Assembly (NCBI RefSeq): GCF_013315695.1
Contig: NZ_CP054353.1
From: Escherichia coli
GTDB lineage: Bacteria > Pseudomonadota > Gammaproteobacteria > Enterobacterales > Enterobacteriaceae
Length of the DNA: 64,000 bases
Direction: 5' to 3' (one strand)
Shown: positions 14,570 through 31,131 of the stretch, in pieces
How positions within the stretch are numbered: the first letter of the stretch is position 1
Layout: each line of letters starts with the position of its first letter
The notes under the pieces: generated by a model
Told to the model about the DNA's origin: nothing
Database searches by the model: none
What the model saw: only the letters and a program-made list of their open reading frames with translations
Program-made: the position numbers and the translations under genes

Positions 14570-15684
14570 TGCCGGAGAGTGCAATGCAAAACTGGATAAA
14601 GGCCGCAGTTATCGCCCTAAGCCTGGCGCTGCCCGGCGTGGCGCTGGCGCAATCGCTGGAGTCGCTGGTCAACGTACAAGGCGTGCGTGAAAACCAACTG
14701 GTCGGCTACAGCCTGGTGGTCGGCCTCGACGGTACTGGCGATAAAAACCAGGTCAAATTCACCAACCAGACCATCACCAATATGCTGCGCCAGTTTGGCG
14801 TGCAATTGCCGAATAAAATCGACCCGAAGGTGAAAAATGTCGCGGCGGTGGCAGTGAGCGCCACGCTGCCACCGATGTACTCACGCGGGCAGACTATTGA
14901 TGTCACCGTCTCGTCGATTGGTGATGCCAAAAGTATTCGTGGCGGCACCTTGCTGCTGACCCAACTGCACGGCGCAGATGGCGAGGTTTATGCCCTGGCA
15001 CAGGGCAGCGTGGTGGTGGGCGGGATGAACGCCACCGGGGCCAGCGGTTCCAGTGTGACGGTTAATACGCCAACTGCCGGGTTAATTCCCAACGGCGCGA
15101 CGGTGGAGCGCGAGATCCCCAGCGATTTTCAGATGGGCGACACCATCACGCTCAACCTGAAACGCCCGTCGTTTAAAGACGCCAACAACATTGCGGCGGC
15201 GATCAACGCCTCGTTTGGCGGCATTGCCACGGCGCAGAGTTCCACCAACGTCACCGTGCGTGCGCCCACCAGCCCCGGCGCGCGGGTGGCATTTATGTCG
15301 CAACTGGATGATGTACAGGTGCAGGCAGAGAAAATCCGCGCCCGCGTGGTGTTTAACTCGCGTACCGGCACGGTGGTGATGGGCGATGGCGTTGCGCTGC
15401 ATGCGGCGGCGGTGTCGCACGGCAGTTTGACCGTCTCGATTAACGAAACCAGCAACGTCAGCCAGCCGAATGCCTTTGCAGGCGGGCGCACGGCGGTAAC
15501 GCCGCAGAGCAATATCGCGGTGAATCATGCGCGCCCGGGCGTGGTGAGTTTGCCGGAGTCGAGCAGCCTGAAAACGCTGGTCAATGCGTTGAACAGTTTG
15601 GGCGCGACGCCGGACGACATTATGTCGATTTTACAGGCGCTGCATGAGGCGGGCGCGCTGGATGCCGACCTGGAGGTGATCTGA
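14569..15684 (+). CDS. lfgI: Flagellar P-ring protein FlgI family (LfgI)
   Basis: 371 aa with signal peptide (alternative start MQNWIK at 14584). Confidence 0.9.
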
Positions 15685-15999: not shown

Positions 16000-16335
<336 letters not shown>

Positions 16336-24206: not shown

Positions 24207-24518
24207 ATGGAAAAACAACGCAGGCAACTTTTCGCGCTGGTTGAAGCGATGAACGAAGCCCTCGACAAGCAACGCTGGCGACGCCTTCCGGCACTGCATC
24301 AGCAGTTGATGCGCCAGTTTCACGATTACGTGGCGGCGGAAACCGACGCGGCGCAGTTGTGTGCGGTGAAGGCGCAGCTGTACGGCGCGTTTAATGCCCT
24401 GATTAAACGGCGCGAGCAGCGTGCAGAAGTGTTGAAGGCGCGTATGGAACAGCATCAGCGGCATCAGGAAGGCGTACTGGCCTACTCAATTGTTAATTTA
24501 CTTTCGGAGAAGTCATGA
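24207..24518 (+). CDS. Hypothetical small helical protein (FliT-like position, LafD)
   Basis: 103 aa from ATG at 24207; assignment by position only. Confidence 0.4.
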   Translation: MEKQRRQLFALVEAMNEALDKQRWRRLPALHQQLMRQFHDYVAAETDAAQLCAVKAQLYGAFNALIKRREQRAEVLKARMEQHQRHQEGVLAYSIVNLLSEKS

Positions 24519-25603
24519 ATCCGGCATTGCTTGCCACGCTCGGAACACTTGCGGAAACGGCGTCGCTGAAAGCGGATATTTTACCGCCGGTGAGTAGTGA
24601 AAACGCGCCCGCGTTTACCCTGCCGAAAATGGCGGTCGCGGCGGTGGCGGAGCGCGTTCATAGCGCTAAAACCAGTCAGCATCAGGCGACGCGCCCGCAG
24701 GAGAACGATCCGGTGGCGATGCAGGCGCTAATGGCGCTGTTACTTCCGCAACCTGCCGCGCCGCATCAGGACACGCCGCAGCCGCGAAACGTCGCAACAT
24801 CGCCGGTTATCCAGCAATTGACGAAAGCGGTGGTGCAAAACGCGCCGCAACGCCCGACGCAGCAGCAGGAACTCACGTCGTTGCCGCCGCAGTTGCAGGA
24901 ACTCACGTCGTTGCCGCCGCAGTTGCAGGAACTGATCGGTCAGTTGCCGCAGGCGAAACCCGAACAGCAGGCCAGACTGGCGACTTACGCCAGTGACGAT
25001 TTACATGCCATTGCGCCGACGCAGCCGCGCGTCTCAACACCGCCAGCTCGCCCGAAACCTGAACTACCCCGTGTGAACGCGCGCCCGCAGGTCGAGCGTA
25101 AAACGGAAAAAGTGCCGGACAGCGAACCGGTTATTGCGCGTGCGGTGTTGCAGGTTAAGACGCCGGATCTGGTCAGCGAACATCATGAGATTGTCGCCAA
25201 ACCAGCCACGCTTTCGATGGACGAACTGGGCGAAAAACTGACGACGCTGTTGAAAGATCAGATCCACTTTCAGCTCAACAAACAACAGCAGATCTCCACC
25301 ATCCGTCTCGATCCACCGTCGCTTGGCAAGCTTGAGATCGCCGTACAACTCGATAACGGCAAACTGATGGTGCACATCGGCGCGAACCAAAGTGAAGTTT
25401 GCCGCGCGTTACAACAGTTTAGCGACGATCTCTGCCAGCATTTGACGGCGCAAAATTTTATGGAGGTGAACGTACAGGTTTCCTCCGAAGGGCAGTCGCA
25501 GCAACAACAGTCGGGCCATCAGCAGGAAGAGGTGAGTGCCGCCTTACAGCTTGATGATGCGCCTCAATTTCAACAGAACGAATCCGTTTTGATCAAAGTG
25601 TAA
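24515..25603 (+). CDS. lafE: Hook-length control protein, FliK family (LafE)
   Basis: 362 aa; Pro/Gln-rich linker with tandem repeat and C-terminal Flg_hook-like domain (LGKLEIAVQLDNGKLMVHI). Confidence 0.7.
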   Translation: MNPALLATLGTLAETASLKADILPPVSSENAPAFTLPKMAVAAVAERVHSAKTSQHQATRPQENDPVAMQALMALLLPQPAAPHQDTPQPRNVATSPVIQQLTKAVVQNAPQRPTQQQELTSLPPQLQELTSLPPQLQELIGQLPQAKPEQQARLATYASDDLHAIAPTQPRVSTPPARPKPELPRVNARPQVERKTEKVPDSEPVIARAVLQVKTPDLVSEHHEIVAKPATLSMDELGEKLTTLLKDQIHFQLNKQQQISTIRLDPPSLGKLEIAVQLDNGKLMVHIGANQSEVCRALQQFSDDLCQHLTAQNFMEVNVQVSSEGQSQQQQSGHQQEEVSAALQLDDAPQFQQNESVLIKV

Positions 25604-28619: not shown

Positions 28620-28657
28620 ATGCTGAATCTTTACGCATTTCTCAAACCCTGAAATCA

Positions 28658-28673
28658 CTGTATACTTTACCAG
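28658..28673 (+). promoter_or_regulatory. LexA (SOS) box upstream of dinB
   Basis: CTGTATACTTTACCAG matches CTGT-N8-ACAG, 17 nt upstream of the dinB start. Confidence 0.65.
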
Positions 28674-28689
28674 TGTTGAGAGGTGAGCA

Positions 28690-29745
28690 ATGCGTAAAAT
28701 CATTCATGTGGATATGGACTGCTTTTTCGCAGCGGTGGAGATGCGCGACAATCCCGCTCTGCGCGATATCCCTATTGCTATTGGCGGCAGCCGCGAACGT
28801 CGGGGGGTGATCAGCACCGCCAATTATCCCGCGCGTAAATTTGGCGTACGCAGCGCTATGCCGACAGGGATGGCGCTCAAATTATGCCCACATCTCACCT
28901 TGCTTCCGGGGCGCTTTGACGCCTACAAAGAAGCCTCAAATCATATCCGAGAAATTTTCTCGCGCTATACCTCGCGCATTGAACCGTTATCACTGGATGA
29001 AGCCTATCTCGACGTCACCGATAGTGTGCATTGCCACGGTTCTGCGACCCTCATCGCCAAGGAAATCCGTCAGACGATCTTTAACGAGCTGCAACTGACG
29101 GCATCTGCGGGCGTTGCGCCGGTAAAGTTTCTCGCCAAAATTGCTTCCGACATGAATAAACCCAACGGTCAGTTTGTGATTACGCCGGCAGAAGTTCCGG
29201 CATTTCTGCAAACCTTACCGCTGGCAAAAATTCCCGGCGTCGGCAAAGTCTCGGCGGCAAAACTGGAAGCGATGGGGCTACGGACCTGCGGCGATGTACA
29301 AAAGTGTGATCTGGTGACTCTGCTCAAACGTTTTGGCAAATTTGGACGCATTTTGTGGGAGCGTAGTCAGGGCATTGACGAGCGCGACGTTAACAGCGAG
29401 CGGTTGCGAAAATCCGTCGGCGTGGAACGCACGATGGCGGAAGATATTCATCACTGGTCTGAATGTGAAGCGATTATCGAGCGGCTGTATCCTGAACTTG
29501 AACGCCGTCTGGCAAAGGTAAAACCTGATTTACTGATTGCTCGCCAGGGGGTGAAATTAAAGTTTGATGATTTTCAGCAAACCACTCAGGAGCACGTCTG
29601 GCCGCGGCTGAATAAAGCTGACTTAATCGCCACCGCGCGTAAAACCTGGAATGAACGCCGTGGCGGGCGCGGTGTGCGTCTGGTGGGGCTGCATGTGACG
29701 TTGCTTGACCCTCAAATGGAAAGACAACTGGTGCTGGGATTATGA
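28690..29745 (+). CDS. dinB: DNA polymerase IV (Y-family translesion polymerase)
   Basis: 351 aa; N-terminal [14 protein letters not shown] motif and full-length Y-family architecture. Confidence 0.95.
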
Positions 29746-30500: not shown

Positions 30501-30953
30501 ATGAATAACATACAAATAAGAAACTATCAGCCTGGCGATTTTCAGCAACTATGCGCTATTTTCATTAGAGCGGTTACGATGACCGCCAGTCAGCATTATT
30601 CACCACAACAAATTGCCGCCTGGGCGCAGATTGACGAATCTCGCTGGAAGGAGAAACTCGCGAAATCACAAGTGCGGATTGCAGTCATTAATGCAAAACT
30701 GGTCGGCTTTATTACCTGCGTTGAACACTATATCGATATGTTATTTGTTGACCCTGAGTACACCCGCCGTGGGGTTGCCAGCGCTTTGTTAAAACCTTTG
30801 ATTAAGTCTGAATCCGAACTTACTGTGGACGCCAGCATAACCGCAAAACCCTTTTTTGAACGTTATGGTTTTCAGACAGTTAAGCAGCAGCGCGTTGAAT
30901 GCCGGGGAGCGTGGTTTACTAATTTTTATATGCGATATAAACCGCAACATTAA
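30501..30953 (+). CDS. yafP: GNAT-family N-acetyltransferase YafP
   Basis: 150 aa; GNAT-like core (RRGVASALL). Confidence 0.8.
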   Translation: MNNIQIRNYQPGDFQQLCAIFIRAVTMTASQHYSPQQIAAWAQIDESRWKEKLAKSQVRIAVINAKLVGFITCVEHYIDMLFVDPEYTRRGVASALLKPLIKSESELTVDASITAKPFFERYGFQTVKQQRVECRGAWFTNFYMRYKPQH

Positions 30954-31131
30954 ATCCAGCTTGCAAAGAAAATAACGCCCGCCTAGTATGTGCGCGTTTT
31001 CTTATTCCACAAACTGCAAGGAGGTAAATCATGACAAATCCTTTATCAATGACTCTTTCCAGACCTTTCCAGGATTAATTCTTTTTTTCTTGCCCTGGAT
31101 TCGTCTGCCATTTCCTGATTTTTATTCATAA

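Follow-up and report, generated by a model that had tools for sequence, protein, structure and literature searches.

Rulers of type III secretion systems

The protein considered here, LafE, is encoded in a stretch of 64,000 nucleotides of Escherichia coli DNA (hereafter the window), and its closest described counterparts are FliK of the Flag-1 flagellum and YscP of Yersinia enterocolitica. FliK of Salmonella and E. coli Flag-1 resembles LafE in having a C-terminal T3S4 domain, in having an N-terminal and central part that is long, rich in Pro and Gln and disordered (by prediction in the case of LafE), and in being encoded within a flagellar cluster, but homology between the two is recognisable in the C-terminal domain only. 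LafE is also shorter, at 352-362 aa compared with 405 aa for Salmonella FliK (bioRxiv 10.1101/2020.03.25.007062), and it is part of lateral Flag-2, a system not yet proven to be expressed in E. coli (PMC4637896), whereas FliK belongs to Flag-1. The lateral flagella of Vibrio parahaemolyticus, Aeromonas and Plesiomonas and the enterobacterial Flag-2 systems (Ren et al. 2005; De Maayer et al. 2020, PMC6993521) have LafE within a shared gene order, lafA-lafB(fliD)-lafC(fliS)-lafD-lafE-lafF(fliL)-lafS-lafT-lafU.

In YscP, repeats of 14, 25 and 46 aa vary by strain, and proteins of 452, 515 and 538 aa are known (PMC3469391). That paper, citing Wagner et al. 2009, describes needle length as linear with protein length. 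YscP is like LafE in that both are type III rulers with a T3S4 domain and strain-variable tandem repeats in the central region. However, the YscP repeats are longer and more numerous, vary commonly between serotypes and have measured effects on the needle, whereas in LafE a single additional unit of 10 aa occurs, confined to one clonal group, and the predicted effect amounts to a few nm. Repeat polymorphism in type III rulers is already established by YscP, and LafE is a smaller and rarer flagellar example. The duplication described below leaves the understanding of hook-length control unchanged; its main value is as a clean textbook case of how a unit lying between 9-bp direct repeats is gained and lost, here in a disordered segment of a protein.

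To our knowledge, tandem-repeat polymorphism in LafE has no earlier description. In the comparative Flag-2 papers searched we found no mention of variation in lafE length or repeats, and the terms “lafE”, “fliK” and “hook length” do not occur in PMC6993521.

The lafE gene and its product

Upstream of lafE are lafA, fliD, fliS and a FliT-like gene (lafD), and downstream are a fliL-like gene, a gene for a FliA-type sigma-28-like factor, motA and lafU, followed by dinB. Judged by these neighbours, the locus is the E. coli Flag-2 (lateral-type) flagellar cluster. All of its ORFs within the window are intact, and the cluster runs on past the left window edge. The main features of the gene, outside the repeat, are as follows (window coordinates):

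24515..25603, + strand: lafE (Flag-2 fliK), hook-length control (ruler) gene; 362 aa; Pfam Flg_hook PF02120; named by PGAP in identical genomes
25262..25507, + strand: coding region of the T3S4 / Flg_hook switch domain, aa 250-331; untouched by the duplication and of the same length in all alleles
25499..25510, + strand: poly-Q tract Q329-Q332 (CAG/CAA) in the C-terminal tail; 4-6 Q between alleles

The PF02120 match extends over aa 250-331 (E=1.3e-15, model positions 4-85 of 85), and the PGAP label in identical genomes is “flagellar hook-length control protein FliK”; the NCBIfam model TIGR02514 (type_III_yscP) scores 39.9 bits, under its cut-off of 76.5. Outside the Pro/Gln-rich segment, the poly-Q tract is the sole length-variable spot in the aligned alleles, and its variation from 4 to 6 Q accounts for the occurrence of both 1059-bp and 1062-bp lafE genes among one-copy strains.

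LafE has the general make-up of a ruler protein, namely a T3S4 domain, a location in a flagellar cluster and a long, poorly conserved and largely disordered N-terminal and central region. In an AlphaFold2 model built on 31 homologues the mean pLDDT is 44.8, residues 77-134 and 162-233 are below 50, and the T3S4 part (aa 235-325) alone reaches 50-65. The repeat lies in coil with pLDDT values of 31-37, so that this segment is predicted to be disordered. With a mean pLDDT of 44.8 the model is too low in confidence for fold searches, and we used it just to place the repeat in the unstructured part. A PDB sequence search with LafE gave no match at E<=0.01.

The initial annotation had described a FliK-type hook-length control gene carrying a perfect 30-bp tandem duplication in a Pro/Gln-rich linker. 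The gene assignment is borne out by the PF02120 match and by the position within the Flag-2 cluster, and the Pro/Gln-rich setting by the composition of aa 84-180, which contain the repeat (16% Pro, 19% Gln). The word linker is only loosely right: by position, the repeat is at the end of the N-terminal ruler region, roughly 100 residues N-terminal to the T3S4 switch domain, and not in the linker beside the C-terminal domain. The duplication itself is where it was placed, with a perfect periodicity slightly longer than had been noted (69 bp, see below).

Anatomy of the repeat

Two identical 30-bp units, CAGGAACTCACGTCGTTGCCGCCGCAGTTG, stand in tandem at 24866-24895 and 24896-24925. Both are in frame with the ORF 24515-25603, and they encode QELTSLPPQL twice (aa 118-137). 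Perfect identity at a period of 30 extends over 39 nt (24865-24903 equals 24895-24933), which gives a perfect repeat of 69 bp (24865-24933), or 2.3 copies. The array reported by TRF is longer (24854-24950; 3.1 copies, 89% identity) because a degenerate third unit adjoins the perfect ones. The components are as follows:

24866..24895, + strand: repeat unit 1, aa 118-127, QELTSLPPQL
24896..24925, + strand: repeat unit 2, aa 128-137, QELTSLPPQL; the extra copy, missing from nearly all other E. coli, where the aligned strains have a clean 30-bp / 10-aa gap
24926..24955, + strand: degenerate third unit, aa 138-147, QELIGQLPQA; an older copy that has since diverged, shared by all E. coli alleles (TRF and alignments)
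24865..24873, + strand: first 9-bp direct repeat GCAGGAACT, boundary of the event (duplication or deletion)
24895..24903, + strand: second 9-bp direct repeat GCAGGAACT
24925..24933, + strand: third 9-bp direct repeat GCAGGAACT

Among units of 10-100 bp, the 64-kb window has no second perfect tandem duplication, and chance alone would be expected to yield ~6e-14 for a 30-bp unit and ~7e-7 over all unit sizes.

Three other roles for this stretch were considered and rejected. The 120-nt region around the repeat folds worse than its shuffled controls (z=+1.7), which argues against a role in RNA structure; the overlapping ORFs on the opposite strand have just 36-46 aa and include no credible antisense gene; and a PHROGs search for a phage connection had no match.

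Copy number in E. coli and related genera

A 180-bp query across the repeat was compared with 5426 complete E. coli genomes, and 1298 of these match. Two copies are present in three of the 1298, MS 21-1, AF3 (NZ_OZ547117.1) and MSB1_4I, each of which matches the query as a single piece at 100%. In the other genomes among the matches listed, the query spans 150 bp, one unit fewer, which corresponds to one copy, and the aligned one-copy strains show a clean 30-bp (10-aa) gap with respect to the window. The two-copy genomes at first appeared to match at three places per record, but this is an artefact of off-register alignment of the repeated query, and a one-copy query finds one place. Two of the lafE matches in this search are to records labelled as plasmids, and in one or two assemblies a portion of Flag-2 may thus be carried on a plasmid or have been misassigned.

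Synthetic queries were used for the two adjoining states. A 210-bp query for a three-copy allele found none in the complete genomes, its best matches being the three two-copy genomes, each as two pieces. A 120-bp junction query for a zero-copy allele likewise found none in the complete genomes, and zero-copy alleles occur as singletons in the protein collection only (~15 billion proteins). In this collection E. coli LafE ranges from 297 to 364 aa; the two-copy protein cluster has 43 member sequences, as against 522 and 3792 in the one-copy clusters. The exact LafE of the window appears on 238 contigs, a variant that differs by one residue appears on a further 266, and with several hundred contigs to its name the two-copy allele has persisted. 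The SLPPxLQ unit occurs just once in each of the homologues from E. albertii, E. marmotae, Pseudocitrobacter, Citrobacter, Kluyvera and Salmonella.

The comparison of copy number across strains that the initial annotation had proposed thus finds a repeat that is not invariant. Variation between strains, as it had supposed, does exist (0, 1 and 2 copies), but it is rare, with two copies in 3 of 1298 genomes, zero copies in singletons and one copy in other genera. LafE is therefore a ruler with tandem repeats of strain-variable number in its ruler region, and the same region has also undergone an independent 11-aa duplication and its reciprocal deletion (described below). It differs from a contingency locus, which has many short copies with high-rate slippage, usually frame switching, and a wide spread of copy number among close relatives. 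Here the 30-bp unit keeps the frame, there are two perfect copies only, no allele with at least three copies was found in the 1298 genomes, and there is one change of state within the clonal group, the other rows inspected having one copy.

Allelic series and origin of the extra unit

At the DNA level, the 0-copy (L008, protein P0004), 1-copy and 2-copy alleles differ by whole 30-bp units only. GCAGGAACT occurs once in the 0-copy allele, twice in the 1-copy allele and three times in the 2-copy allele, the spacing being 30 bp. The lafE genes of AF14 and AF10 correspond to the window gene minus one unit, with zero other differences in 1059 bp.

Paired direct repeats at short spacing are a standard substrate for slipped-strand mispairing and unequal exchange. 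Since the one-copy allele carries 9-bp direct repeats 30 bp apart, it is a substrate for duplication or for the reciprocal deletion. From this anatomy we infer slippage as the mechanism: mispairing or unequal exchange between the GCAGGAACT pair of the common one-copy lafE would produce the extra unit, and QELTSLPPQL would be added to the disordered Pro/Gln-rich centre while the N-terminal region and the T3S4 switch domain are left untouched.

The same segment has changed length in other ways. In protein P0125 (364 aa), an 11-residue stretch, LPPQLQELISQ, is duplicated in another register and on another allele background, and P0006 has the reciprocal 11-residue deletion. Several singleton alleles have larger deletions, all of them inside aa 84-180. 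Among rare E. coli alleles, P0011, P0013, P0015-P0022, P0026 and P0030 have in-frame deletions of 28-65 residues, and some of these lose a conserved block at aa ~149-168. Such alleles may be non-functional rulers that are tolerated by a silent Flag-2.

The clonal group and the direction of change

The lafE gene of the window is 100% identical to those of MS 21-1 and MSB1_4I. Over 35 kb the window is closest to MSB1_4I (4 SNPs) and next to AF3 (8 SNPs). Together with AF10 and AF14, which have one copy, the three two-copy genomes make up a tight clonal group, within which there are 4-26 SNPs over 35 kb around Flag-2 and 3-14 SNPs over a 33.5-kb stretch ~2.7 Mb away. The nearest other genomes are separated from it by ~470-900 SNPs over those stretches and are 1.3-2.5% divergent.

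The more distant alleles all have one copy, and one copy is therefore ancestral. Within the clone there could have been a single gain, or a gain followed by loss in AF10 and AF14. The SNPs at two loci of ~35 kb conflict on the direction: at two sites the two-copy genomes come out as monophyletic, at three to six MS 21-1 is excluded from a group to which AF10 and AF14 belong, and at one MS 21-1 goes with AF14. These conflicting sites are probably blurred by recombination. Whether there was one gain or a gain and then a loss, the change in copy number is recent on the scale of the diversification of the clone.

One member of the clonal group has a damaged Flag-2 gene. In MSB1_4I, the P-ring gene flgI of Flag-2 is truncated by the deletion of ~230-240 bp and is annotated as a pseudogene (L010 10313-11164; window equivalent ~15409-15637), which suggests that Flag-2 is dispensable in this group. 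In the window flgI (14584-15684) is intact.

We consider it very probable that the extra unit is a recent, lineage-restricted, near-neutral slippage duplication that marks one clonal group. A near-neutral allele would simply have been carried along with this group, and the two-copy allele could serve as a clonal-group marker in E. coli.

Predicted effect on the lateral hook

The size of the expected effect can be estimated by analogy with Salmonella FliK. There, as engineered FliK ranges from 363 to 785 residues, hooks range from 42 to 135 nm, with a slope of 0.2 nm per residue (PMC6126814), and a fully extended chain would add 0.37 nm per residue (PMC6972891). If these figures, which are for the FliK of Salmonella Flag-1 and so for another flagellar system, carry over to LafE, the longer ruler would delay the export switch slightly, and ten extra residues would lengthen the lateral hook by about 2 to 3.7 nm, provided that Flag-2 is expressed. 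The ruler part of Salmonella FliK consists of FliK-N and the linker (PMC6972891), and by this analogy the LafE repeat would be located in the part that acts as the ruler. Wild-type Salmonella hooks measure 53-55 nm with an SD of ~6 nm (PMC6972891), so that the predicted shift of 2-4 nm would fall inside the normal scatter of hook length.

Deletions of 5-10 residues in the linker of Salmonella FliK shorten the hook by ~4 nm and leave motility essentially unaffected, with only the 216-225 deletion causing a slight reduction (PMC6972891). Because the 5-residue deletions shorten the hook by more than geometry accounts for, the effect of the LafE unit could be somewhat greater than 2-4 nm. If ten residues do lengthen the hook measurably, the alleles with 0, 1 and 2 copies, whose backgrounds are nearly identical, would offer a natural test of whether an unrelated second flagellar system also follows the rule of ~0.2 nm per residue. 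What Flag-2 does in Enterobacterales is described as largely unknown (PMC6993521), and in E. coli EC958, the single strain with a test in the literature, Flag-2 did not support motility and LafA was undetectable under the conditions tested (PMC4637896).

The small predicted shift, the unaffected motility of the Salmonella mutants, the lack of detectable Flag-2 expression in EC958 and the truncated flgI of MSB1_4I together make it unlikely that the extra unit serves a selected role. The initial annotation had proposed copy-number slippage as a simple way to vary hook length between strains; copy number does vary, but as a device for this purpose slippage is quantitatively weak (~2-4 nm against a scatter of ~6 nm), and the variation is rare.

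Alternative explanations

In its strongest form, this proposal makes the repeat number a selected and readily switching device by which strains tune the length of the lateral hook. It draws on the existence of 0-, 1- and 2-copy alleles in a segment that is a recurrent site of indels, on the presence of 1- and 2-copy alleles inside one clonal group, and on the linear dependence of hook length on FliK length in Salmonella (PMC6126814); in YscP, strain-variable repeats reportedly accompany different protein and needle lengths (PMC3469391). However, one copy is the state in more than 99% of the complete genomes examined and in other genera, three copies occur in none of these genomes, and two 30-bp copies are a poor substrate for slippage in comparison with true contingency repeats. 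The predicted change lies within the natural spread of +/-6 nm, FliK changes of similar size left Salmonella motility unaltered (PMC6972891), and in EC958 Flag-2 is unexpressed and does not drive motility (PMC4637896). The truncated flgI in MSB1_4I, itself a two-copy genome, also argues against strong selection on the apparatus. We regard adaptive tuning as improbable, although it is the best placed of the alternatives to near-neutral slippage.

A related but slightly less probable view is that the Pro/Gln-rich centre of LafE is a natural adjustable ruler. Its short direct repeats (GCAGGAACT 30 bp apart and GTTGCCGC 33 bp apart) would make gains and losses of 10-11 residues recur, with toggling inside a clone (a possible 2-to-1 reversion in AF10 and AF14) and small steps in lateral-hook length on which selection could act; the YscP polymorphism would then have its equivalent in the flagellum.

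A still weaker candidate is that the duplication acts through a short linear motif, SLPPxLQ, and not through ruler length. In this case the motif would be a contact site, with the hook cap, the hook interior or a chaperone among the conceivable partners, and its doubling would alter binding or the kinetics of FliK export. Within an otherwise poorly conserved central region, at least 90% of sequences have L133 and P135, and Q138 does not vary among the Escherichia, Citrobacter, Kluyvera, Salmonella and Pseudocitrobacter homologues; the conserved block at aa ~149-168, a predicted helix, follows directly after the repeat. Because the duplicated unit holds the best-conserved positions of the variable region, it may be more than a passive spacer. 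Nevertheless, natural 0-copy alleles that lack the motif exist, larger natural deletions take out the motif and the conserved block together, and the AlphaFold2 model shows no structure at the motif, so that we think this explanation very unlikely. We know of no partner or function for SLPPxLQ.

Short tandem duplications can arise as assembly errors, but three complete genomes of separate origin (USA, UK and Australia), sequenced independently, share the identical allele, and the protein is recorded on hundreds of contigs from several sources, which leaves a negligible chance of an assembly or sequencing artefact.

Other variation in and around Flag-2

In the intergenic stretch that separates the flgJ-like gene of Flag-2 from flgK, the window contains a tandem array with a 117-bp period (16000-16310; 2.6 copies, 92% identity). 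We take its consensus to resemble paired REP (BIME-type) palindromic elements, with the motifs GCCTGATGCGACGC...GCCGGATAAGGCG. Two SNPs that separate close relatives (16016 and 16018) are inside this array.

Members of the clonal group also differ from one another downstream of lafE. In MS 21-1, a ClbS/DfsB-family gene and an ISL3-like ISEc53 transposase gene are inserted between lafU and dinB (L011 24255-26012; window ~28620-28690), and this insertion is missing from the window, AF3, MSB1_4I, AF10 and AF14. In AF10 and AF14, an inserted IS1A (L013/L009 25957-26783; window ~30575-30955) truncates yafP, a gene that is intact in the window, which has IS1 copies at ~53626-54394 and ~57129-57903. 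At ~32270 of the window there is a 3-bp in-frame indel in an RtcB-family RNA ligase gene with respect to AF3, and in MSB1_4I the gene is likewise annotated as 1137 bp, as opposed to 1140 bp. Farther downstream, an integrase and a prophage-like island occur by the tRNA-Thr downstream of proA (from window ~40866 onward) in the window, AF3, MSB1_4I, AF10 and AF14. MS 21-1 and E7-1N7 are without this island and run on instead into yagU-ykgJ-ecp, a stretch that the window seems to have in inverted orientation at its far end (61742-64000).
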